A stretch of 36,087 nucleotides of DNA. It comes from a virus. Each line of letters starts with the position of its first letter. Positions within the stretch are counted from its first letter, which is position 1. The translations under genes were made by a program, and so were the position numbers. The notes under the pieces are model-generated. The model was given only the letters and a program-made list of their open reading frames with translations, did not search any database and was not told where the DNA came from. This document shows positions 1,698 through 34,674 of the stretch, in pieces. The stretch is from the UHGV virus genome UHGV-0213252; one strand, written 5' to 3'.

Positions 1698-1873
1698 TCC
1701 GACCCCTCTCCGTTCAATATCTCGGTCACATGGTCCTCCCCGAGAACAGCTGCGAATCCTTTCTTGGTCATCGAGGCGAAAATCTCGCCATCGCTGTTCG
1801 TGAGGCTGAACTTCGAGCGTAACTCCTCGGCCAGCCTCTCGAATCTGTCGCCGTAACCGACGATGACGGTCAT
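1694..1873 (-). CDS. 59-aa hypothetical protein (MTVIVGYGDRF...), not in ORF track
   Basis: Manual translation; ATGA overlaps at both ends. Confidence 0.65.
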   Translation of the reverse strand: MTVIVGYGDRFERLAEELRSKFSLTNSDGEIFASMTKKGFAAVLGEDHVTEILNGEGSE

Positions 1874-2010
1874 TCCTTCGCCTCCTTGAGGTATTGCCTC
1901 ACGGCTCTGATAACAATCGTTGACTTGCGCACGTTGTCCTTCTTGGCCCTCTCCTTTACCTCCTCCAGCAACTCGGCTGGAATCGTGATTGTCAATGCCA
2001 CTTTACTCAT
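1870..2010 (-). CDS. Ribbon-helix-helix (CopG-like) regulator
   Basis: MSKVALTITIPAELLEEV...STIVIRAVRQYL is a classic RHH pattern. Confidence 0.8.
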   Translation of the reverse strand: MSKVALTITIPAELLEEVKERAKKDNVRKSTIVIRAVRQYLKEAKE

Positions 2011-2239
2011 TCCTTTCCCTCCTGCGCAATAGCGAGAATACACGCTTATCTCCGTTGTAACCGCACACGTGGACCACTCCCTCATCGATCAGGGTCTGGA
2101 TGTGCCTGCCGTAAGCATAGGTCGATCTCTTGCATCCTATCGCATCGATGATGTCGCGCGTAGTCCCCATGTGGATACGCTCCAACGCCTGTATGATCTG
2201 GCGTTGCTTCTCCGTCCTGAACATGTCCACCGTCTCCAT
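2003..2239 (-). CDS. Winged-helix DNA-binding protein (start METVDM)
   Basis: EKQRQIIQAL..GTTRDIIDAIG...HIQTLIDEGVV. Confidence 0.7.
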   Translation of the reverse strand: METVDMFRTEKQRQIIQALERIHMGTTRDIIDAIGCKRSTYAYGRHIQTLIDEGVVHVCGYNGDKRVFSLLRRRERNE

Positions 2240-5509: not shown

Positions 5510-6066
5510 TGGCCCACCTTCCCGAAGAACTTGTCCTTGGCGATATTCTCGGCCGTTGCAGGGACCTTCTTGTGTGGAAGCTCTCCTTGGTTGAAGTCGT
5601 TGTCCTGCTCCCTTGCATCGTCATACTTGCTGTCATCCTTGCTGGATTCGGAGAATCCGAAGATGATCTTGATCAGGTTCTTGTATGCCATCGTGTAGAC
5701 CTTGTTCACGACCTTGTCGCTGTCGGCCATGTCCTGCGCCTCCGCGCGGATCGTGACCGTGAATGAATCCTCTGGTCCAGCGATGCAGAAGTCGATGTCC
5801 GCACACTCGAAGTACCATTCTTTCTCGCCGTAGTTCGTCTTGCGCGTGTACTTGTGCGTCCTCTCCCCTACTACGGAGTAATTGAGAGGGATGATGGAGA
5901 TTCCTTCCTCGCTCGTGCATTGCTCGATTAACGGCTTCGCCGATTCTACAGGGAGGTATGCGAAACGGAGGCCCTCGGACATGACCTTCTTGAAGTTGCC
6001 CTTGGCTTGGAAGCTCGCGCGAGCCCTCGCCAAACGCGAGTACACGTTATCTGCTGGCTCGGTCAT
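5506..6066 (-). CDS. erf: ERF-family single-strand annealing protein
   Basis: N-terminal VYSRL..AR, FAYL, and C-terminal D..DK..NK..T.AYK..I...F motif of the ERF superfamily. Confidence 0.7.
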   Translation of the reverse strand: MTEPADNVYSRLARARASFQAKGNFKKVMSEGLRFAYLPVESAKPLIEQCTSEEGISIIPLNYSVVGERTHKYTRKTNYGEKEWYFECADIDFCIAGPEDSFTVTIRAEAQDMADSDKVVNKVYTMAYKNLIKIIFGFSESSKDDSKYDDAREQDNDFNQGELPHKKVPATAENIAKDKFFGKVGQ

Positions 6067-6473
6067 TCCGACCCCTCCACATATATAATGCTATCAGACA
6101 CTTTTTTTTTGTTTTTTTCTTTTTCTTTTTCGGCGTATAACGAAGCCGAGAAAGGGATCCTCTTCCACTTGAAGACCGAGTTCTTGACAGCTGTGAGATC
6201 TATCACTGCCGTGTCCGTCTTCTTGGAATAATTACAGATCACTCCTGAACCCATCAATGCGAGCCATTTGCCCTTGACAGTCGGAATACATCCGATGAAC
6301 CCGTCTGCGAGCATATACTTCGTAAAATCCTGCCTTCTGATGATCGATGCTCTAAGGAGATCGCTCTCTATCGGAGTATCCCCTATGCTATCGATCAGCC
6401 TCCAATCGATGTGCATTCCGACATAATGCCTATCGATTAGCCTCTCGATTACGTCCGTAATTTCGATTTTCAT
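6063..6473 (-). CDS. Hypothetical protein, first gene of the early operon
   Basis: ORF with GAGG RBS; Lys/Glu-rich tail encoded by A tracts. Confidence 0.65.
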   Translation of the reverse strand: MKIEITDVIERLIDRHYVGMHIDWRLIDSIGDTPIESDLLRASIIRRQDFTKYMLADGFIGCIPTVKGKWLALMGSGVICNYSKKTDTAVIDLTAVKNSVFKWKRIPFSASLYAEKEKEKNKKKVSDSIIYVEGSE

Positions 6474-6474
6474 T

Positions 6475-6570
6475 CAAATTCCTCTTTCGAGGGTTTGAAC
6501 TTCGTTTTTTTCAAAATTCGACTTAATAGTTATTTAGTCGGATTTTGACGAATCGATACTCCAAACCCTT
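6475..6570 (-). promoter_or_regulatory. Structured 5' leader with two mutually exclusive hairpins
   Basis: 6490-6497 pairs with 6562-6569; 6511-6523 pairs with 6536-6548; alternative CAAACCCTC-GAAA-GAGGAATTTG hairpin covers the RBS. Confidence 0.55.
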
Positions 6571-6590
6571 GTTACCTTGATTATTCTTGA

Positions 6591-6601
6591 GATATATAAA
6601 A
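6591..6601 (-). promoter_or_regulatory. Putative archaeal TATA box
   Basis: Minus strand TTTTATATATC, about 25 nt upstream of the leader hairpin. Confidence 0.55.
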
Positions 6602-6603
6602 CC

Positions 6604-7491
6604 TCATATTTTCGCTGAAATCATTTCCATCGCAGACATCAATGCAGACCGTTCTCTCTTGACGTAGCGTTCTGTTGTCGATATATTCGTATGTCCCATC
6701 AATGTCTGAACGACATGAAGGTCCGTGCATGATGCAGCTGTCGTTGCGAACAGCCTTCTTAATGAGTGCGGCGTGAAGTCTATCTTGGATCTCTCGCTGA
6801 TTCCTTTGATGACGAAGTTTATCTTATTGTCTGCGAATGGTGTAATCTTATTCTTCGTCATCCTAAATAGTAAGTAATCTCCGGGTGTGACCCTTTTTCC
6901 AAATTTGCATTCTTCTCTATATAGATTGTATTCAGAGATCTTCTTGAGCATCTTCTCCGATAGAGGGATTATGCGGATCTTCCCGTCAGCTCCGTGTCCT
7001 TTCCCGTGGACCGTCATCATCCCGTCCCTTATGTCGGTGGTCTTGAGAACCACCATCTCATGCCTCCTTAATCCGCATCTCGCTCCCAAGAGCATGATCA
7101 TCTCCTCGGTGGGATTCTTCGTCATAGTGAGGGCTACTTTGAACTCGGCTTCGTTGATCCATTTGACATTTGCTTTTGCATTATCGCTCCACAGCAAGCC
7201 CATGTCCTCGATGACGCTGTTTCCATTATATTTTAACCAACTTCTCAATACGGCGACGTATGTTTTCTTCGTCGTCGGAGATAGATTACAATCAAGCATG
7301 GTCAGCACCTCATCCCTTCCGATCTTTGTCGGATCCGTGTGTTGGTCCTTATCGCTCATTCTCCTTATGGATCCTGTGAGCATGTATCTCATAGTCTCGA
7401 TGCTGTTCGTTTTACGCCCTCTTTTCGCTAAATACTCGCTATATTCATCGATTTTGCGAATGGCGACCATATATTCCTCTATACTCTCCAT
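6604..7491 (-). CDS. int: Tyrosine recombinase / integrase (XerC/D-like)
   Basis: Catalytic R (GLRRHE), K (GKG), HSLRR, LMGH and Y (TERY). Confidence 0.93.
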   Translation of the reverse strand: MESIEEYMVAIRKIDEYSEYLAKRGRKTNSIETMRYMLTGSIRRMSDKDQHTDPTKIGRDEVLTMLDCNLSPTTKKTYVAVLRSWLKYNGNSVIEDMGLLWSDNAKANVKWINEAEFKVALTMTKNPTEEMIMLLGARCGLRRHEMVVLKTTDIRDGMMTVHGKGHGADGKIRIIPLSEKMLKKISEYNLYREECKFGKRVTPGDYLLFRMTKNKITPFADNKINFVIKGISERSKIDFTPHSLRRLFATTAASCTDLHVVQTLMGHTNISTTERYVKRERSALMSAMEMISAKI

Positions 7492-7502
7492 TATATTCCT
7501 CC

Positions 7503-7530
7503 AAAAAAAAGAAAAAAAAAGAAAAAAAAA
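7503..7530. repeat. A8-G-A9-G-A9 tract (poly-U in mRNA) abutting the integrase RBS
   Basis: Seen directly; GGAGG follows at once on the minus strand. Confidence 0.85.
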
Positions 7531-7566
7531 GAATGTAACAAATAAATATCGTGGAATGTCTATAAG

Positions 7567-7614
7567 GGTTGTAATCGGCCGTCATCCAAACCCGTTTTAC
7601 GGCCGATTATAACC
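7567..7614. repeat. 16-bp inverted repeat with 16-bp spacer (terminator or att-like site)
   Basis: ggttgtaatcggccgt ... acggccgattataacc, 1 mismatch. Confidence 0.75.
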
Positions 7615-7626
7615 TCTTTCGAGTTA

Positions 7627-7818
7627 TTATTCCAACCTTGCCTCAAAGCGTGTGACCTTCGAGGCCCTGTTCACGCTCATCCCACAGTATGGTGCTCCCG
7701 CTACCTGCAGATTGAGCGCGATGGATTGACAGTCCTCCTTACTGCCCATGTAGATCGTTGTGCCGTTCACAACGACCGTATAGGTCATCAGTCCGAGCTT
7801 CTGACGAAGTGATCCCAT
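7627..7818 (-). CDS. Small hypothetical protein (start MGSLRQK)
   Basis: GGAGGGGTGA RBS upstream of 7818. Confidence 0.6.
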   Translation of the reverse strand: MGSLRQKLGLMTYTVVVNGTTIYMGSKEDCQSIALNLQVAGAPYCGMSVNRASKVTRFEARLE

Positions 7819-7847
7819 CTTCACCCCTCCTGCGCCACTGACCGAGG

Positions 7848-8147
7848 TCAGTAGTCCTCCTGCTCGATGGCCTTGTGCATGTAGCGGAGCTCTTCCTCGT
7901 TCCATACGAGCGGTGCAGTGAGCTCGTTCGCCCTCGTGATCATCCAGCACGCCTCGTGGAGGTCATCGCTGAACAATGCATCGACTGCCCTGACGAAGCA
8001 GTCGCGGAGTTCTGTGTTGTTCGTGTATCTCGTGTCCGCGAGGTTGTACATCTGCTTGACACATTCGCGTGTCATCATGATCCTGCGGTCCTTGTTGGCA
8101 GCGTAAAGAACGCCTGCCTGCTTTCTCGAAAAATTGGTGTATTCCAT
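7848..8147 (-). CDS. Hypothetical protein behind duplicated promoter copy 1
   Basis: ORF with AGGAG RBS and TATA box. Confidence 0.7.
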   Translation of the reverse strand: MEYTNFSRKQAGVLYAANKDRRIMMTRECVKQMYNLADTRYTNNTELRDCFVRAVDALFSDDLHEACWMITRANELTAPLVWNEEELRYMHKAIEQEDY

Positions 8148-8150
8148 TTC

Positions 8151-8215
8151 TGATCGCTCCTGTCGGGTTTCCCCTTGTCGTAATACTACATAGTATTACT
8201 ATTATATAAAACTAT
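8151..8215 (-). promoter_or_regulatory. Duplicated promoter/operator/leader, copy 1
   Basis: 8157-8195 identical to 9618-9656; TTTATATA box; TAATACTA-ca-TAGTATTA palindrome; GGG-GAAA-CCC hairpin; AGGAG RBS. Confidence 0.8.
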
Positions 8216-8217
8216 GT

Positions 8218-8829
8218 TTACTCTATCTTCTCCAGCGTTACCTTGACGAGGTCCCCTCTCTTGAGACCAAGAGCATGTGCGAGCTCCGTGATCGTTACTG
8301 ATAGGGAGTAGGATCCTACCCCGCGTATGGTCGTTATGTCCGATGCCTTCCTGACCTTTTTGATGATGATATCGCCCGATGGTGTCTGCCTCGGACGGGT
8401 CATCGATTGCGCTATCTCTGCGGTGGCCTCCTCGAGGGTCATCCACGTGTTGAGCACGCAGTCGAGGAGATTTCCGTCCTCGTCAGTAACAGAGTACTCT
8501 TCAACAATATGCTTCTTTCCACGCTCGTCCACCCATGTCTCCTTTTCTGCTCCGGGTTCGTCGACCCATGACAGCGTGAACTCCTCGCCATTGACGATGT
8601 GGTGGTATCCGTCGGTTACGTCCAACTCGAGGGATTCCCCGATGACTGTATTCTCTACCGAGATGACCGAGCTCTCGTCGATCATCTCATAGAGCTTATG
8701 GTCATACACATCCAACGATCCCCACACTCCGGAGCATGGCCCAGCGGCGGCAGGGAAGACTATCGTCTCCTCCACTTCCGTCTTCGTTCTCTCGTCCTCT
8801 ACCTCATATGTCATCCTGTATCCTTTCAT
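8218..8829 (-). CDS. Acidic protein with C-terminal AbrB/MazE-like DNA-binding domain
   Basis: IRGVGSYSLSVTITE...ALGLKRGDLVKVTL. Confidence 0.7.
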   Translation of the reverse strand: MKGYRMTYEVEDERTKTEVEETIVFPAAAGPCSGVWGSLDVYDHKLYEMIDESSVISVENTVIGESLELDVTDGYHHIVNGEEFTLSWVDEPGAEKETWVDERGKKHIVEEYSVTDEDGNLLDCVLNTWMTLEEATAEIAQSMTRPRQTPSGDIIIKKVRKASDITTIRGVGSYSLSVTITELAHALGLKRGDLVKVTLEKIE

Positions 8830-9131
8830 TCTTCTTCCTCCTCCTTATCCTCATATATGATGCCGAACCCATACATGTCCTCGGGATCGCAGCGTGCGAT
8901 GATTGCATCCGTTACCATCGAGCGGACCATGCAGTCATGTCCATCGTAGTTCACAGGATCCTTCTTGATCCTCTCGAACTCCTCGTCATCATCGCATCCG
9001 GCGCGGATGGCCTCCTCGATGTCCGCGTCGCTCATGAGGAGGCTGACGATTTGGAAGATGTCCGCATCGTCGAGCTTCTGTCCATAATCGATGCCATAGA
9101 TTGGCTCCTTTCCCATGTAGTAGAACGACAT
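8826..9131 (-). CDS. Acidic hypothetical protein
   Basis: Coupled ORF. Confidence 0.65.
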   Translation of the reverse strand: MSFYYMGKEPIYGIDYGQKLDDADIFQIVSLLMSDADIEEAIRAGCDDDEEFERIKKDPVNYDGHDCMVRSMVTDAIIARCDPEDMYGFGIIYEDKEEEEE

Positions 9132-9133
9132 GA

Positions 9134-9349
9134 TTACATCAACTCCCTTATAGCTCCCCCGAGCTCACTGATAGCCTCGCGCACTTTGTCGATTTTATCA
9201 TAGATAAGCGCGATTTGTTCGTCATCGGCCACGCCAGATATCCTGATGTCATTAGTCTCGTATTTGAAATCATCTAGAATCGCGTACATCTTAGAGATTT
9301 TCCTCAACATCCCCATACACTGGATTATCGTGGGCTCCGGTGTGTTCAT
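9134..9349 (-). CDS. Hypothetical helical protein (start MNTPEP)
   Basis: ATGA overlap with the upstream gene. Confidence 0.6.
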   Translation of the reverse strand: MNTPEPTIIQCMGMLRKISKMYAILDDFKYETNDIRISGVADDEQIALIYDKIDKVREAISELGGAIRELM

Positions 9350-9609
9350 TCCATCTCCTCCATGTTCTCGAGGCAGACGGTGTTCCCGAATCCGTCCGAC
9401 CATCCGTCCTCGATCGGCGAGTACCCTTCGTTCAATCTCTCGCGGCAAACATCGACATCCTTCGTGAACTGCGGGACCACCGTCTGGTGGACCTCTACGC
9501 CGTCCCTCTTTGCGACGACGTCGAACACGATTGTCGTGTACTGCTCGTCGTCGACCTCGTAGACCGTGCAGTCATCGAATTTCCATGTGTTGTTGATTTT
9601 TCCAACCAT
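9346..9609 (-). CDS. Hypothetical protein behind duplicated promoter copy 2
   Basis: AGGAGTGA RBS upstream of ATG 9609. Confidence 0.7.
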   Translation of the reverse strand: MVGKINNTWKFDDCTVYEVDDEQYTTIVFDVVAKRDGVEVHQTVVPQFTKDVDVCRERLNEGYSPIEDGWSDGFGNTVCLENMEEME

Positions 9610-9612
9610 TTT

Positions 9613-9676
9613 TATCACTCCTGTCGGGTTTCCCCTTGTCGTAATACTACATAGTAATAGTAGTATATATAACTAT
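9613..9676 (-). promoter_or_regulatory. Duplicated promoter/operator/leader, copy 2
   Basis: 39-bp identity with copy 1; TTATATAT box. Confidence 0.8.
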
Positions 9677-9694
9677 CTACAAATTGCCATAGAT

Positions 9695-9772
9695 TGAGAA
9701 AGGATCCTTTTGCAAATGAAGAACAATGACCCGCCGACAGGAGCGATCAAACTCGAACGACGGGTCAATTAC
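9695..9772 (-). ncRNA. Candidate antisense hairpin small RNA
   Basis: TATA-like TTTTATAT near 9789-9796; stem TGACCCG/CGGGTCA; contains 16 nt complementary to the leader/RBS at 8151-8166. Confidence 0.45.
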
Positions 9773-9798
9773 CTATCGCTATTGCAGATATAAAATAA

Positions 9799-9823
9799 AC
9801 GGGTGGGCCGAGGCCCTACCCGT
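9799..9823 (-). terminator. Hairpin terminator
   Basis: acgggt-gggcc-ga-ggccc-t-acccgt followed by a T-rich run on the minus strand. Confidence 0.65.
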
Positions 9824-10041
9824 CAGTTAAGGAGTTTGCTCGCGAGCTCCCTCGCGCTCTCGAATTGGTCGGGAATCCTTGCGCCTCTCTCGATGTATTC
9901 GAGAAGTACGTCCTTGGCCGTGATAGGCAGGAACTCGCTACCGTTTATACGGTAGTAGGTCCCGTCAGGACCGATGCCTAATCCGTAGTCATCGGCCATG
10001 ACCTCGACGTAATTAACGACCTGCATCTGTACGACTTGCAT
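9823..10041 (-). CDS. Hypothetical protein (start MQVVQM)
   Basis: GAGTGA RBS, directly after the membrane gene. Confidence 0.6.
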   Translation of the reverse strand: MQVVQMQVVNYVEVMADDYGLGIGPDGTYYRINGSEFLPITAKDVLLEYIERGARIPDQFESARELASKLLN

Positions 10042-10045
10042 AAGA

Positions 10046-10666
10046 TCACTCGCCGTTGTCGTCGCCAAGAAAAACGGTCAGTTTGTCGGCATCATTGCCT
10101 TTGACTATTTCAGCAATTTTCTGAAGAGACATGAGGTCAAGCTTTCCGCCAGCCGAAGCGATTTTGCAGAAGATCCTGATCTTCTCCTCATCGACGACAC
10201 CGAGGGCCTTCGCTTTGGCCTCGAGCATGTCGATGGCCTTCTGCCTCGCTTCCTCGGACTTGGCTGCCTCCCTGATGAGGGCCTGTCCCTGAATGTATGC
10301 CTTGTCAAGCTGGCCGTTGAGCCATGCCTGTGGGAACCATGCGTCTACGACGTAGGCGGCTCCTGCGCCGAATATAGCGGCGATGAGCAACACTGCAGGT
10401 ATGTCCTCTCCACCGAACGGCTGTCCGGTGTAGAGCCAATTGGCGACCCTGTAAGAGCCGTATGTGAGAACGACACCGAGGATGATGTCGACAGCTGCGG
10501 CGATGAAGGCGCGGTTGTCCCAATCCTCGGGATCCTCCCCTCTCTTGAGCCTGGCCTTACAGGCCCTCTCGTAGAGGGAGTAGTATCTGAAGCCGATGAG
10601 GAGCCCTGCACCGAGGAACGATGCGACGAGTATCCAAATCAAGCTATAATCAAAATCGACGATCAT
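10046..10666 (-). CDS. Three-TM membrane protein with helical C-terminus, holin-like candidate
   Basis: Three hydrophobic segments; position downstream of the tail module. Confidence 0.6.
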   Translation of the reverse strand: MIVDFDYSLIWILVASFLGAGLLIGFRYYSLYERACKARLKRGEDPEDWDNRAFIAAAVDIILGVVLTYGSYRVANWLYTGQPFGGEDIPAVLLIAAIFGAGAAYVVDAWFPQAWLNGQLDKAYIQGQALIREAAKSEEARQKAIDMLEAKAKALGVVDEEKIRIFCKIASAGGKLDLMSLQKIAEIVKGNDADKLTVFLGDDNGE

Positions 10667-10688
10667 GTGATTACTTCCTGTGTCTTGT

Positions 10689-10866
10689 GATACCAAAAGT
10701 AGCCCTGTGAATCCTGTTGTCAGGTAGCTATATGATAACGATACCTTCATCAGACTTTTTGATGCCGTAAGCGGCGTTGGGCAGTACATTATTGGACCTC
10801 ACGGTAGAGGTGCCTCGGGAGATCAGAAAAGAATCATGGCCGACGGAGGAACGGATGTCGGCCATG
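10689..10866 (-). ncRNA. Candidate structured leader / ncRNA
   Basis: 10-bp perfect stem 10835-10866, two short hairpins and a long imperfect hairpin 10689-10765; TTTATATA box near 10901-10908. Confidence 0.4.
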
Positions 10867-10938
10867 TAGACACACACAATCGCCTCCATGTTATTATGAT
10901 TATATAAAGAAAATGAAGAAAGGGTTTTAATCGAATGT

Positions 10939-11784
10939 TTATGCGACTATTACAGTCCCTTGGACATCCGATGATGTGGAGCTCCATTCGATAGTTACCT
11001 TGTGCAAGTCTGCGACCTTCGGAATGGAGAACATCTGCGTTGTTACCTTGGATTCTCCCTTGTTGAGCGTTACCTCGACGTAGGGATCCTCTGTGAGCTG
11101 CGATGATGATCCTATCATCCATATCGCGTTGCCACTAACTGCCACGTCATAATTGGTCCATCTCGTGCTTATCTTCCCGTGATTGCATGTGAGCTTTATC
11201 TTCACGAGCATTATGGTCATGTTCGGTTCCGCATTATAGACGGTCCCATCCTTGAGCGTAACGCTATCTGCCGTGCTGATGGTGGCCTCGAAGTTCCCCA
11301 TCGGCTCCATTTCCGTCTGGACGTATTTCGTCGTTCCCGACAGGTTCCATGACCCCTTGTAGATGATCTCCGCCTTGTTAGGGTCTGCGGCCTTTGGTAT
11401 CTGGAAGACGTAGCATGATGTATCGCTGGCCCCGATGCCGATGTTCTTCAGGACATATCTCTTATCGTGATTGAGCGACGATGTCTTCCACAGGTCGCAA
11501 CCGTACGTTATTCCGTCGGCTTTGATGTTCATGTAGAGATAGTTATTCGATATTCCGTCATCGGCCCTGTCGTTGGTTATCGTTACCAATGCAAGAACGA
11601 ACGTATTTCCTGCATCGGGTGTCTGTATACCCATTGTCGTATAGATCATGTCATGCGTGGATAGTTCCGCCGTGAACGATCCCTTATCCTCCGCCACATA
11701 GTTTCCGAAACTCATGGCCAATGCACCGCCAGCGATGACCATTATCGCTACGACGGCTATCACTGCGATTGTTATCTTTTTCAT
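10939..11784 (-). CDS. Membrane-anchored protein with two DUF4352-like Ig domains
   Basis: MKK + hydrophobic signal/anchor; repeated GNTFVLALVTITN..VFQIPK and MLVKIKLT..MFSIPK; own TATA near 11835-11841. Confidence 0.7.
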   Translation of the reverse strand: MKKITIAVIAVVAIMVIAGGALAMSFGNYVAEDKGSFTAELSTHDMIYTTMGIQTPDAGNTFVLALVTITNDRADDGISNNYLYMNIKADGITYGCDLWKTSSLNHDKRYVLKNIGIGASDTSCYVFQIPKAADPNKAEIIYKGSWNLSGTTKYVQTEMEPMGNFEATISTADSVTLKDGTVYNAEPNMTIMLVKIKLTCNHGKISTRWTNYDVAVSGNAIWMIGSSSQLTEDPYVEVTLNKGESKVTTQMFSIPKVADLHKVTIEWSSTSSDVQGTVIVA

Positions 11785-11845
11785 AATAGAATCCAACCCG
11801 TGCTATGCACAGGTCGACTAACGCCCTACTCCGTTATATAAGCTG

Positions 11846-12247
11846 TCAAGCCTTGACGACGGGTTTCTGGTTTTTCTTCGCATATGCGGTCTCGATAGCC
11901 GTTCTGCGTGCATCGGATAAACGAGAATATTCCGCATCCTTACGGCAGACCTCATCGATGATCGCATCACGTCTCTCGGAGAGCTCCTTCGATGCCTTTA
12001 CTACGTCGGGATCATCCTTGACGGATGATTCCATCATGGCGAACAGCCCCGGATCTATCTTCGGAGCCGATTCCATCTCCTCGATCCTTTTCTTCAGAGC
12101 ATCAACCTCCTTTATCTTGGCCATGAGGTCGGGAATGTACACGCCCTGATCCATGAGCTCGTTGAATGCCTTGAAGTTCTCATTCTTCTGCTCATTGGAT
12201 AATCCATTGTTGCCCTGCATCGCTCTCATGATGTTGTTGTATTGCAT
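11846..12247 (-). CDS. Coiled-coil hypothetical protein (start MQYNN)
   Basis: GGGGG RBS; helical composition. Confidence 0.65.
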   Translation of the reverse strand: MQYNNIMRAMQGNNGLSNEQKNENFKAFNELMDQGVYIPDLMAKIKEVDALKKRIEEMESAPKIDPGLFAMMESSVKDDPDVVKASKELSERRDAIIDEVCRKDAEYSRLSDARRTAIETAYAKKNQKPVVKA

Positions 12248-13454: not shown

Positions 13455-13958
13455 TTGAACTCATGTAATTCAACTAAATATAACAATAATTTAGATTTGA
13501 TCGATGTATTAAATAACAAGCAAGACAAACTGATCGCTGGCGATGGAATAACAATAGCGAATGATGGGAAAACGATTAGTTCAAGTACACCAGGAATGAC
13601 TTTTATATCAGACAGTATTAGAAATCATTATACTGTCGAAAATGGTGTATTAACAGTTCCAAAAAATTTATTGTTTATTGGTACTTCATCAAGTGGTAAA
13701 AACGATATAGTATTATCTGTATTAATTTACGCTGGTAAATATTCAACTAATAATTCACGTTTTTCTTCATTTGGTGGACATTTATCAACTGTCCATACAT
13801 ATCCTATAGTTGGGTTAACAGTAAATTTAGCTAGCAATTACGTTTGGGTACATTTTGAACAGTTTAAATCAGCAACAGATAATGATTTTATCGAATTAAC
13901 ACGTTTAAATGTTGATACTACACTTAGTGGTTCAAAATATAAAGTATATACATTTTAA
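13455..13958 (+). CDS. Silent alternative C-terminal cassette of the tail-fibre/adhesin
   Basis: Only credible plus-strand ORF; no ATG or RBS; shares YNNNLDLID and KQDKLIAG.GI.IA.DGKTISSS with 13990..14688. Confidence 0.85.
   Translation: MNSCNSTKYNNNLDLIDVLNNKQDKLIAGDGITIANDGKTISSSTPGMTFISDSIRNHYTVENGVLTVPKNLLFIGTSSSGKNDIVLSVLIYAGKYSTNNSRFSSFGGHLSTVHTYPIVGLTVNLASNYVWVHFEQFKSATDNDFIELTRLNVDTTLSGSKYKVYTF
13471..13506 (+). repeat. Inverted repeat L (36 bp) of the invertible segment
   Basis: caactaaatataacaataatttagatttgatcgatg; 35/36 match to the reverse complement of 14586-14621. Confidence 0.92.
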
Positions 13959-13989: not shown

Positions 13990-14688
13990 TTACCAACTTG
14001 CATTTATGAGATATGCTGACAGGTTTCCTGTTCTCATTTTTGTATTTGATGGTATAGTAATAGAAAAAGAACTTGTACTTGTTATAGTTTTGTTAAATGT
14101 AGTTAATGACACAAAATCACTATCTAATACAACAAAAGATAGATTAACAGGTGAACTACTACTTGGTGTTGTTATATATGAGGGAAAATTTTTTGGATCA
14201 ACATATAAGTAACCTGTACTTGCAAGAAGTCTATTTTTTGAACTAAAATTTCTTAATGAATTTGTAATAGAGATGGAATATGAATTAGTGGTGTGTTTTC
14301 CTGTACCGAAATTAACTATTGTTGAACTCGTAACCCCTGATGCATCCGATCTAAGGGCACCTTCAACATTTAAGGTTCCAACCACAATAGGTGCATATAC
14401 AGTTATTTCAGACGGTACCTTTGTACTAATTACACCATCACTGCTGATTTGTATACCATCACCAGCAGTATATTCCTTACCACTACTACTGATCGTCTTT
14501 CCATCACTTGCAATACTAATTCCACTGCCAGCAATCAACTTATCTTGTTTACCCGCAACTGATGTAATAAGATCGCTCTTCAGACCATCGATCAAATCTA
14601 AATTATTGTTATATATAGTTGGAAAATTGCCTGCATAGTCTGTGTCGGCTATCTTCTGCAGCTGTAAGTTCGTGGTCTTGCCTGCCAT
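13990..14688 (-). CDS. Tail-fibre / receptor-binding protein (expressed orientation)
   Basis: MAGKTTNLQL phage-fibre-type N-terminus, AG.GI.I repeats, Ser/Thr-rich beta C-terminus; last gene of the tail operon. Confidence 0.8.
   Translation of the reverse strand: MAGKTTNLQLQKIADTDYAGNFPTIYNNNLDLIDGLKSDLITSVAGKQDKLIAGSGISIASDGKTISSSGKEYTAGDGIQISSDGVISTKVPSEITVYAPIVVGTLNVEGALRSDASGVTSSTIVNFGTGKHTTNSYSISITNSLRNFSSKNRLLASTGYLYVDPKNFPSYITTPSSSSPVNLSFVVLDSDFVSLTTFNKTITSTSSFSITIPSNTKMRTGNLSAYLINASW
14586..14621 (-). repeat. Inverted repeat R (36 bp), inside the fibre gene at about codons 23-35
   Basis: Minus strand caactatatataacaataatttagatttgatcgatg. Confidence 0.92.
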
Positions 14689-32169: not shown

Positions 32170-32200
32170 ATAACAATTATAACGTTACTATTTTTATATT
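32170..32200 (-). promoter_or_regulatory. 31-bp repeat copy A (TATA + operator-like)
   Basis: ataacaattataacgttactatttttatatt; 29/31 identical to 34644-34674. Confidence 0.75.
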
Positions 32201-32604
32201 TTCGATTTTCTGCTTAAAAACCGTAGTTGTTTGCCCATTCCCATGCCCTCTAATGGTACTTCGTGATTTGGGAACTTTTGCACCAAATATTTGCGATAAT
32301 TGGTGCCACATAAGAATACGGCTTTTTCATCATAATCGATGTTCTTTCTCTGTAACTCCATACAGACATCGTAAGCCCATCTTTTCCTCTCCTTCTCTGA
32401 CATATGATTTAAGGTCAGTTCGTAAGGATCTATGATGTCATTCAATTCCAATAATCCATATTTTGCAGATAAAATGAATATCCTTCTTGGATTGAGTGAT
32501 TTGGCGTATTGTAACGAATATCTGAACAATGGCGATATGTACATATCTTCGGCTTTGCAACGATGGTTAGCCTTGGTCTTTACACATGATAAGAAAACGA
32601 TCAT
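32194..32604 (-). CDS. DUF6884-like protein (start MIVFLSC)
   Basis: LSCVK.K....A.DMY.S.LF, ILSAKYGL, I.PYE.TL, PL.G.G.G.QL. Confidence 0.75.
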   Translation of the reverse strand: MIVFLSCVKTKANHRCKAEDMYISPLFRYSLQYAKSLNPRRIFILSAKYGLLELNDIIDPYELTLNHMSEKERKRWAYDVCMELQRKNIDYDEKAVFLCGTNYRKYLVQKFPNHEVPLEGMGMGKQLRFLSRKSKI

Positions 32605-33425
32605 AAGTGTACCTCTGCCCAATCAGAGAACTTCTTCCATTCTGTAAAATTGTGCCTGGCCGTTCTTCTTGGATCAGCAATCCTCATCCCTTCTGGCCTC
32701 TTGGTTACGATGATGTTACCTCTACCGTCGAATGTGTGGATGTTCCCGAATCTGTTCCCTGATGTCCATGATGTACTATCCACAGAATCGAAATGATACT
32801 TTGGGAGGTCTTTCAATGATGTGAATCCGAGGCCGTGTATCCTTGCCCCGTGCTTATGTGCTATATCGATCAATGTCGGAAATATCTTCCACTGGTCCGG
32901 TGTGATCTCTCTTGTTACGATACCTCCTATCGCGACATAATCATACTCCTTGCACATCTTGACGAACTCATCCTTTCCTCTTGATCTATGCCAAACGGGT
33001 ATCGAGGGTTGATCAGTCAATCTCTCTAATGTCTGGCGCATCTCCAATACTCTTTGATACCCAACCAAGGGATCTATGTCTAACTCGAAGAAGTGTTTGA
33101 CATTGTTCTTTCTGATAAATTCGCTGTAATTACTGATGTATTCATTCCAGTCGACCTTCTTTCCTTGACCGAAGAATGTGAATGCTCCACTGTCAAGTAG
33201 GAACAGCTTAGAACGAGGGATTACTTGTTTCTCTGTGAAATCATCAACATAATAGAATGATTGTAGGGTTTTTGCTCCATTCAGTATCGAATATTCTCCG
33301 CTCTCTCTCTCTCTCTCTCCCATGTATGATGCCCATACCTTGCCCGAATCTGCCAAGTAGAGATCCATCTCTTCCTTGCCCCCCTTCAACCTTATCTGTT
33401 GATTTGGAACTAAGTATACATCCAT
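32601..33425 (-). CDS. TGT-fold transglycosylase-like protein (DpdA-like); start may be 33368
   Basis: LDSGAF, PVWH, VAIGG, IHGLG, SVDSTSW motifs; adjacent to a preQ0/preQ1 transporter. Confidence 0.72.
   Translation of the reverse strand: MDVYLVPNQQIRLKGGKEEMDLYLADSGKVWASYMGERERESGEYSILNGAKTLQSFYYVDDFTEKQVIPRSKLFLLDSGAFTFFGQGKKVDWNEYISNYSEFIRKNNVKHFFELDIDPLVGYQRVLEMRQTLERLTDQPSIPVWHRSRGKDEFVKMCKEYDYVAIGGIVTREITPDQWKIFPTLIDIAHKHGARIHGLGFTSLKDLPKYHFDSVDSTSWTSGNRFGNIHTFDGRGNIIVTKRPEGMRIADPRRTARHNFTEWKKFSDWAEVHL
33301..33318. repeat. (CT)9 / (AG)9 microsatellite in the 5' part of the TGT-like gene
   Basis: ctctctctctctctctct, encoding GERERES. Confidence 0.92.
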
Positions 33426-33473
33426 GTAGATAGGTTCCGTTCAATATTCCGCCCAAACCTGCAAGGGCTATAA

Positions 33474-34127
33474 TCATGCATTCCTCTTATTCGTCATCAG
33501 ATAGAATATCGGCGTATCGCATGCGGCGATAAGGAACTTGACGAAATATTGTCCGACCATCATTGCTCCAAGTGTCGGCAACATCGCTGGATCGAACAAC
33601 CAACCGAAACCTATTCCGAATGCTATCCCGATGAAGATCACTGTATCGATTATTTGCGATGTCATAGTAGATACATTATTGCGGACCCATCTGCGGGTAC
33701 TCCCGTCATGATCTTTGAATTTGTGAAAAATGAACACATCCCAACTCTGGGAGATTATGTAGGCAGTCAAGGATCCTAATGCGAACATGAAGTTCTGTCC
33801 TAATATCGTCACATATGCATCCTGTACATTCCCGTCTACAGCAGGCAGATATTGCGTGAGGAGGATCATGATCGATGCGAATATCTGAACGATAAAACCG
33901 AATCTTACAATGCGATTGGCTTCTGCTTTCCCCCAAATCTCTCCGACAATGTCCGTTATTAGGAATGTTATTGCATAACAAAGCACAGCCCCGGGGATGG
34001 TTATCGTTGCTCCGAATAACGGTATCCCCGTCTGTACCACTTTGGATGCAACTACATTGGCGATGACCAGTGTTACAGCGAAGAACATCCCCAACAGCAA
34101 TAGATTACTGTCCTTCCTGTCTATCAT
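33474..34127 (-). CDS. yhhQ: Queuosine precursor transporter (YhhQ / COG1738 / Vut_1; start MIDRKD)
   Basis: ANVVASK, FLITDIVGEIWG, SLTAYIISQ.WDV, RNNVST..SQIIDT, DTP. Confidence 0.9.
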   Translation of the reverse strand: MIDRKDSNLLLLGMFFAVTLVIANVVASKVVQTGIPLFGATITIPGAVLCYAITFLITDIVGEIWGKAEANRIVRFGFIVQIFASIMILLTQYLPAVDGNVQDAYVTILGQNFMFALGSLTAYIISQSWDVFIFHKFKDHDGSTRRWVRNNVSTMTSQIIDTVIFIGIAFGIGFGWLFDPAMLPTLGAMMVGQYFVKFLIAACDTPIFYLMTNKRNA

Positions 34128-34588
34128 AGGTCGAACCACTCTCCGCAGTGAGGGCATTGGATCTGTCTCGGTTCCTTTGGTTTCTCCTCTGCTGATGCGA
34201 AGAAGGAATCAACATCTATATCCTCATGATCAATGAATCCGAAATCTGTCATGTCGAGGTCATCTATCAATGCCAATTCTTCATCGAGCTTTGCAAAATC
34301 CCATCCTGCAAGCTCTGATGTTTTGTTGTCAGCCAAACGGAATGCCCTTATCTGCTTAGGTGTGAGGTCATCAGCGAGTATGCATGGTACTTCCTCCAAT
34401 CCGAGTTTTTGAGCTGCCAAAAATCTTGTGTGCCCTGTAACAATCGTATCCTTCTTGTCGATGACGATAGGTACTTTGAATCCGAACTCTTTGATCGAAT
34501 TAGCGACTGCATCTATGGCGCCCTCGTTCTTACGTGGGTTATTCTCATAGGGATGCAATACCTCAATTTTCTTCATGATCATTTCCAT
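34124..34588 (-). CDS. ParB/Srx N-terminal domain protein with C-terminal CPHCG
   Basis: PYENNPRKN, SIKEFGF.VPIVID, GHTR, FRLADNK. Confidence 0.88.
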   Translation of the reverse strand: MEMIMKKIEVLHPYENNPRKNEGAIDAVANSIKEFGFKVPIVIDKKDTIVTGHTRFLAAQKLGLEEVPCILADDLTPKQIRAFRLADNKTSELAGWDFAKLDEELALIDDLDMTDFGFIDHEDIDVDSFFASAEEKPKEPRQIQCPHCGEWFDL

Positions 34589-34643: not shown

Positions 34644-34674
34644 ATAACAATCATAACGTTATTATTTTTATATT
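34644..34674 (-). promoter_or_regulatory. 31-bp repeat copy B (TATA + operator-like)
   Basis: ataacaatcataacgttattatttttatatt; overlaps a TAATAAC-N9-GTTATTA dyad. Confidence 0.75.

Follow-up and report, generated by a model that had tools for sequence, protein, structure and literature searches.

A predicted antisense hairpin, conserved in close relatives, may mask the Shine-Dalgarno sites of two presumed early operons in a probable gut-methanogen virus

The DNA analyzed here (UHGV virus genome UHGV-0213252; 36,087 nt, hereafter the window) comes from a tailed virus. It encodes a terminase, a portal, a capsid, a tape-measure protein and a tyrosine integrase, almost all genes being on the minus strand. 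The virus is temperate, and its hosts are probably gut methanogens. Since its holin-like protein has a 57% relative in a Methanomethylophilaceae sequence, and since its best annotated relative, vir215 (Caudoviricetes sp., NC_092586.1, also L013), is a Methanomassiliicoccales virus, sequence relationships point to Methanomassiliicoccales as the host group. The region of interest is flanked on one side by the end of the late genes and on the other by a module comprising a promoter (P1), four small genes, a second promoter (P2), two genes and, downstream, the tyrosine integrase (6604..7491, minus strand; PF00589, E 7.8e-20). From position and gene content, we infer that P1 and P2 are early promoters. 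P2 is a 68-nt duplicate of P1. On the minus strand, the presumed P1 (9610..9672) comprises a TATA box (9672-9665), an imperfect palindrome (about 9660-9641) and a leader with a GGG/CCC mini-hairpin, a layout that is the same in vir215; the presumed P2 (8148..8211) comprises a TATA box (8211-8204), a 20-bp palindrome with 18 of 20 positions symmetric (8199-8180) and a leader. Leaders across the relatives share this build, with a small GGG/CCC hairpin, a Shine-Dalgarno site and an ATG.

The first genes of the two operons, both on the minus strand, encode acidic proteins of 87 aa (9346..9609, P1) and 99 aa (7848..8147, P2) that belong to no family. Neither found a match in Pfam, PHROG or Atlas, and these searches gave no mark of a toxin and no recognizable antirepressor. 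Among other viral contigs, none was found with the exact leader pattern or through the two proteins, and the promoter pattern matched none of 261 genomes of the order. Genes of the P1 operon overlap or almost abut. Among close relatives the early genes between P1 and P2 differ (window 9597-9607 and 8842-9358): runs X2 and X18 have 243 extra letters at 9597-9607, at the start of 9346..9609, and runs X1 and X7 carry replacements between the promoters; this interval is a hypervariable early cassette flanked by repeated promoters.

No CI-type repressor was found among the 63 scanned proteins, which included only an Arc-like protein (1870..2085) and a weak AbrB/MazE-like domain. The latter is in the last gene of the P1 operon (8218..8829, minus strand), whose C-terminal 45 or so residues are conserved in relatives. 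TIGR02609 was matched by four of the eight members of this family (best E 0.0011, below the cut-off) and an AbrB-like match was present in only four of 20 relatives' regions; Pfam and PDB gave no sequence support, and a structural model (pLDDT 78.7) had no match in a fold search. The palindrome TAxTACTATGTAGTATTA is located between TATA box and start at both promoters (8180-8199 and 9641-9660) and is common to vir215 (L013 35028-35045 and 36021-36038) despite protein identities of 28-35%. It is a candidate operator for the AbrB-like protein, and the product of 8218..8829 a candidate for the protein that binds it.

Upstream of P1, positions 9734-9749 (CCGACAGGAGCGATCA) are the exact reverse complement of 8151-8166, in the P2 leader, as the preliminary description had claimed. 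Read on the minus strand, this 16-nt antisense core (UGAUCGCUCCUGUCGG) falls within a hairpin (9727..9767) made of 10 outer pairs, one of them U-G, a 4-bp inner stem, a CUGU internal loop and a UUGAUC apical loop. The hairpin, also part of the preliminary description, was borne out by folding: a 56-nt minus-strand segment reaches -22.5 kcal/mol (z -4.5), a value that none of 200 shuffles equaled. The plus strand folds less stably (-16.3, z -3.1), the U-G stem pair making the minus strand the favored one. Both loops are predicted to be open, with opening costs of 0.0 for UUGAUC and 0.1 for CUGU. YUNR is a loop motif of antisense RNAs, to which UUGA conforms, albeit as a weak sign.

A transcript of about 50 nt (9716..9766, minus strand) is predicted, with a putative start at G9766 and a putative U-rich 3' end. 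A terminator scan flags the stem at 9746-9731 with its T-rich tail, which is more T-rich in the close relative L004. The minus-strand TATA-like element noticed earlier is present (TTTTATAT, 9788..9795, read 9795-9788), is the same 8-mer as at P2 and lies 20 nt before the stem, but it is ambiguous because it overlaps the T-tract of an upstream terminator-like hairpin (9800..9822, minus strand). The latter closes the upstream late operon, which carries the holin-like gene, and is invariant in the compared runs. The proposed start follows archaeal TATA-to-start spacing: 29 nt separate the first T of TTTTATAT from G9766, the equivalent distance to the leader G being 32 nt at P1 and P2. On the other side of the hairpin, a palindrome of 12 bp (AAAGGATCCTTT, 9699..9710), already noted, is indeed perfect and has no internal variant site in the compared runs. 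Its GGATCC core occurs in six of ten equivalent intergenic regions (including L050, at about 767-777, L044, L001 and L003), 25-59 nt upstream of the early TATA box in five of the ten and 130 nt upstream in vir215. A cmscan of 6000-12000 against Rfam, carried to E 5, returned three sub-threshold hits, none of them in 9695-9800.

The complementarity of the core extends to both early leaders. With the P2 leader (target 8151..8166, minus strand) it forms 16 Watson-Crick pairs, or 18 contiguous pairs counting G-U. For the P1 leader (target 9612..9627, minus strand), a match with a single G-U pair had been claimed; the G-U pair holds, but a second differing position is a true mismatch, leaving a contiguous helix of 14 bp. 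Helices elsewhere do not exceed 11 bp. By itself, the 16-nt inverted match is at chance level: one turns up in 94 of 200 windows after dinucleotide shuffling and in 49 of 100 after block shuffling, and the match is only the second longest exact one in the window, followed by three 15-mers. Its placement is another matter, as 5000 shuffles of the 150-nt intergenic region gave no match to the P2 leader longer than 14 nt, and hence none of 16 nt, in a test devised once the pairing was already known. What makes the 16-mer credible is its context, namely a strand-asymmetric non-coding hairpin, a TATA-like box, specificity and invariance.

Regarding specificity, a scan of 24,044 windows on both strands gave neither leader a better non-self partner than the hairpin, with duplex energies of -29.9 for P1 (runner-up -23.1) and -36.9 for P2 (runner-up -29.1). 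When pairing was scored by local, accessibility-corrected energies, P2 (-16.4) and P1 (-7.9) ranked first and second among 62 gene starts. The remaining 60 have a mean of -2.8 (sd 2.0), and P1 is ahead of the next start (-7.2) by only 0.7 kcal/mol. Starts had been chosen automatically, and some were wrong, both here (9289 for 9346, since corrected) and in the corresponding scan of vir215 (integrase, shifted by one); one start used for L014 was wrong as well. The core resembles the 16S rRNA 3' end (GAUCACCUCCU, from a related host genome) and adds 5-7 leader-specific bases. Predicted energies on the two leaders are -26.7 and -34.5 for the core, against -10.7 and -11.1 for the 16S tail, so that through these leader-specific bases the core is predicted to outbind the tail by 16-23 kcal/mol. 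As expected of an RNA that masks a ribosome-binding site, the complementarity spans a Shine-Dalgarno site on an mRNA that is transcribed separately, and an accessible seed is predicted within a stable structure.

Conservation was assessed in close relatives. Of 21 sequencing runs, all represented by assembled contigs, which carry neither strand nor transcript ends, seven were compared with the window, X4 giving no alignment; run X1 in particular is no evidence of a transcript, since its contigs cover 28 of 30 bins, intergenic DNA included. L004 is 96% identical over 3.5 kb and differs on both flanks of an unchanged 9728-9767, a segment that is also identical in runs X1, X2 and X18. Within 9696-9785, 14 sites vary, none of which falls in 9728-9773 (three of four runs, X1, X2 and X18, from three studies). 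The hypergeometric probability of this invariance is 0.003 for 9728-9767 and 0.022 if 9727 is included, with boundaries set after the data were seen; the change at 9727 preserves a U-G pair. For the 16-mer alone, which is too short to count, p is 0.13. The TATA-like box is invariant in L004 and the runs, whereas the spacer between box and hairpin (9774-9785) contains seven variable sites. Variants of the P1 leader fall at 9637-9644, outside the target, and run X1, which has a different leader, retains 15 pairs, including one G-U, in a count made by eye that began at the loose end at 9641. Changes in the compared relatives are one-sided only, with no two-sided compensatory change, and conservation of the targets is also expected from Shine-Dalgarno function alone. 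Taken together, the sequence comparisons indicate that the anti-leader hairpin is real, specific and conserved among close relatives.

The module recurs in more distant viruses (vir215, L014, L017, L001, L003, L044, L050, L078 and L079); L016 was dropped as unrelated. A matrix of ten intergenic regions was compiled, leaving out L034, L041 and L077, whose leaders are very short, and loci truncated by contig ends. In seven of the ten, a pyrimidine-rich tract lies 39-63 nt upstream of the early TATA box of the first leader (the second leader of L017 is elsewhere). In L001 and L003, a different upstream tract pairs with its own leader over 19 bp with one bulge, the two viruses differing by one G-C/G-U change; the L001-type tract takes first place among 3,960 windows in L003 but only seventh place, self excluded, among 13,638 in L005. 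In L014 and L017, the leaders changed from GGAGTGA to GGAGAGA while the element remained unchanged, and cognate pairing is absent in L044, L050 and L079. Over seven clades, cognate exceeds non-cognate pairing with p 0.05 (best leader), 0.08 (mean) or 0.22 (P1 only), and with p 0.32-0.45 once this virus is removed. The covariation between RNA and leaders that had been put forward as a check is therefore not claimed family-wide, given p 0.05 over seven clades and 0.32 without this virus. The proposal that one RNA acts against both operons keeps the genome-specific pairing with both leaders and the invariant hairpin of close relatives in its favor; across the distant clades its support is borderline.

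vir215 shares with the window the duplicated promoters, the palindrome, the AbrB-like gene and the integrase, at 35% identity for the capsid and 28% for the integrase, and its record annotates no RNA. Like the window, it has before P1 a hairpin with an anti-Shine-Dalgarno loop (CUCACUCC); unlike in the window, this loop matches just 7-8 leader bases and the hairpin is not preceded by a TATA box. Inspection by eye found no TATA box in front of the equivalent elements of L001 and L003 either. As partners of the vir215 hairpin, the P2 leader ranks 14th and the P1 leader below 20th. Of 72 starts in vir215, GAGTGA singles out exactly the four early ones, but neither L014 nor L017 retains it at P1 and P2. 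The strongest vir215 site (-20.3, before the 35482 frame) was discounted, being weaker in L014 (-9.8) and L017 (-7.1). The frame itself (L013 35482-35616), unannotated, recognized by eye and also present in L014, belongs to the early operon and encodes 44 codons with two CxxC motifs. vir215 also carries a reverse transcriptase after its tail protein (L013 27927-31621), which suggests a diversity-generating retroelement; no reverse-transcriptase match was found among the 63 scanned proteins of the window.

The attachment site is likely in the gap that separates the integrase from 6063..6473 (window 6473-6604), because L003 runs into a host gene there (5681-5963) with its 6063..6473 homologue on another contig, and because the vir215 record ends there. 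We take the continuation of L003 to be the start of the host tyrosyl-tRNA synthetase gene. Integration would then cut the replication operon off from the early promoters; the window represents the unintegrated arrangement. Complementary low-complexity repeats occur in all nine loci examined, one arm in the integrase leader and the other at the 3' end of the gene that follows, immediately ahead of the start of an ERF-like gene: 7503-7549 and 6081-6130 in the window, 11725-11756 and 13116-13147 in L001, about 36660-36695 and about 370-410 in L013, and further pairs in L014, L082, L080, L079, L084 and L064. Their type varies by virus (T/A tract, GTCT/AGAC, GT/AC, or GT+CT), their longest stretch of exact complementarity measures 11-22 nt, and in five of nine cases the cognate pair leads its row. 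In phage lambda, sib mediates retroregulation of the integrase. Because the likely attachment site lies between the repeat arms, the repeats suggest by analogy either sib-like retroregulation or an integrase-leader antisense RNA directed against the replication operon.

Elsewhere in the window, an inverted repeat of 36 nt in an AT-rich stretch (97%; 13471-13506 and 14586-14621) surrounds the open reading frames 13455..13958 (plus strand) and 13990..14688 (minus strand), and is possibly a small mobile insert or a set of paired promoters. A queuine tRNA-ribosyltransferase-like gene, a Vut_1 transporter and a DUF6884 gene lie together at 32194-34157, presumably forming a 7-deazaguanine DNA-modification module. 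An AT-rich, near-palindromic direct repeat of 31 nt (94%; 32170-32200 and 34644-34674) flanks the modification and ParB-like genes.

That the hairpin pairs as RNA with the leaders in some form is likely. For the specific reading that an antisense sRNA of about 50 nt from 9727-9767 masks both early Shine-Dalgarno sites in trans, the chances seem a little better than even. Its main RNA-based rival, which we consider unlikely, confines the hairpin to read-through RNA of the late operon, where it would refold onto the P1 leader, perhaps also that of P2, and block early translation in cis. Pairing of the core with the P1 Shine-Dalgarno site is predicted with a probability of 0.56 in an RNA starting at 9822 and about 1.0 in one starting at 9766, and the placement of the relatives' elements close before the early TATA box, often without a TATA box of their own, would suit such an insulator. 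Yet the perfect match is with P2, 1.5 kb away and separately promoted, rather than with neighboring P1, and a TATA-like 8-mer stands at promoter distance, with a variable spacer. It also seems improbable that the element is a by-product, either an ordinary second terminator with a pyrimidine-rich loop that happens to match Shine-Dalgarno-like leaders, or what is left of an inverted leader duplication. The frequency of 16-nt inverted matches in shuffled windows, the terminator-like scoring of part of the hairpin and the loss of significant covariation without this virus agree with that reading, as does the pairing of C/U-rich 3' ends in the family with non-cognate leaders (-12.8 for the L050 region with the L078 leader). 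It accounts poorly for the placement opposite the P2 leader, for a match that exceeds a generic anti-Shine-Dalgarno sequence, and for the invariance of the loop bases and not of the stem alone.

An explanation at the DNA level, which had been proposed as an inverted operator, came out weaker. It would make CCGACAGGAG(C/T)GAT a site bound by a viral or host protein and present in both leaders, with the third, inverted copy upstream of P1 serving for looping. Each copy is conserved in the compared runs, and two copies at gene starts plus one inverted resemble the layout of the start-associated sequences (SAS) of cluster K mycobacteriophages, as far as the accessible text of PMC3203893 describes it. 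However, the site lacks dyad symmetry, whereas the palindrome between TATA box and start, common to vir215, makes a better operator; the inverted copy belongs to a hairpin that is stable mainly on the antisense strand; and two of three changes in the target copies are C-to-T opposite G, which RNA pairing tolerates (by eye, and a weak point as transitions are common). A DNA tag of this kind is thus quite unlikely. A plus-strand product is very improbable: transcription diverging from the symmetric TATA box of P1 would yield either a decoy mimicking the leader or a peptide of 23-25 aa (9716-9793). The frame (MKNNDPPTGAIKLERRVNYLSLLQI) is open, and remains so for 23 codons in L004, but the core shows no synonymous change, flank changes alter residues and shift the stop (by eye), and the plus strand folds less well.

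Under the preferred reading of a trans-acting antisense sRNA, the RNA would start near G9766 behind the TATA-like box and end in the U-rich tail. Its UUGAUC and CUGU loops would nucleate pairing with the leaders, and the helix would extend to 14-18 bp across the Shine-Dalgarno site and outcompete the 16S tail. Action on the P2 mRNA, transcribed from its own promoter 1.5 kb away, would be in trans, and on P1 in trans or in cis; trans action is favored because the better match is to distant P2. Silencing of the first gene would be polar on closely spaced downstream genes, which is likely in the P1 operon since its genes overlap or nearly abut. Most likely, such an RNA would serve to hold down early genes in a provirus or once infection has reached its late stage, with a protein repressor acting in parallel at the promoter palindrome. 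Given the position of the attachment site, a provirus would retain the early module beside the integrase, where silencing is needed.

Several known systems offer points of comparison. The c4 antisense RNA of phages P1 and P7 acts in immunity control: its loops bind a viral mRNA at the ribosome-binding region, which blocks translation, according to the accessible part of PMC12197685. The predicted RNA resembles it as a phage-encoded structured RNA with loops complementary to a viral ribosome-binding region. It differs in being a single simple hairpin of about 50 nt, predicted from sequence in a virus of an archaeal host, with first genes behind two duplicated promoters as targets instead of a recognizable antirepressor; the covariance-model search places nothing at 9695-9800 in the Rfam C4 (c4 / P4 CI) family. 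In Methanosarcina mazei, sRNA162 uses a single-stranded region to mask, in trans, a ribosome-binding site (PMC3510493; also PMC3432209, both as far as their available text goes), but it is host-encoded, longer, processed and directed at a metabolic target, whereas the hairpin described here is viral and near-perfectly complementary. Halovirus phiH produces Tant, an antisense RNA against the early lytic transcript that confers immunity by removing the ribosome-binding site (PMC4284463, in the portion available). Both are temperate archaeal viruses with an antisense RNA, here a predicted one, against an early transcript; the element shares the minus strand with its targets but occupies a separate locus, and is hence not a cis-antisense RNA of the Tant type. 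In cluster K mycobacteriophages, SAS and ESAS form an asymmetric extended Shine-Dalgarno tag at non-structural starts with inverted repeats nearby; many genes per genome are tagged, four phages have one inverted copy, and the function is unknown, according to the same partial text (PMC3203893). Unlike these phages, the window has two tagged starts, and its inverted copy forms part of a conserved hairpin preceded by a TATA-like box. The 13-bp SAS tag (GGGATAGGAGCCC) differs in sequence, with only three copies within two mismatches in the window.

Lysogeny maintenance in methanogen viruses has been little studied. In the accessible part of one review, the example of RNA control in an archaeal virus is the cis-encoded antisense RNA of phiH (PMC4284463), and a search of openly accessible literature listed no publication on an RNA of the present kind in a Methanomassiliicoccales virus. 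If a c4-like sRNA does act in trans in a gut-methanogen virus, that logic would reach archaea. It is tempting, though doubtful, to extend this further and suppose that temperate viruses of Methanomassiliicoccales run their lysis-lysogeny switch largely by RNA, combining an anti-Shine-Dalgarno sRNA, which would silence the transcripts of both early promoters and whose match to its own leaders would provide immunity specificity, with an integrase-leader repeat across the attachment site. If so, integration itself would alter which RNAs can pair, the integrase-leader repeat being parted from its complement at the end of the first replication gene. The exact bases for a test by compensatory mutation are named here, and the element may ultimately offer a compact translational off-switch for methanogen genetics.
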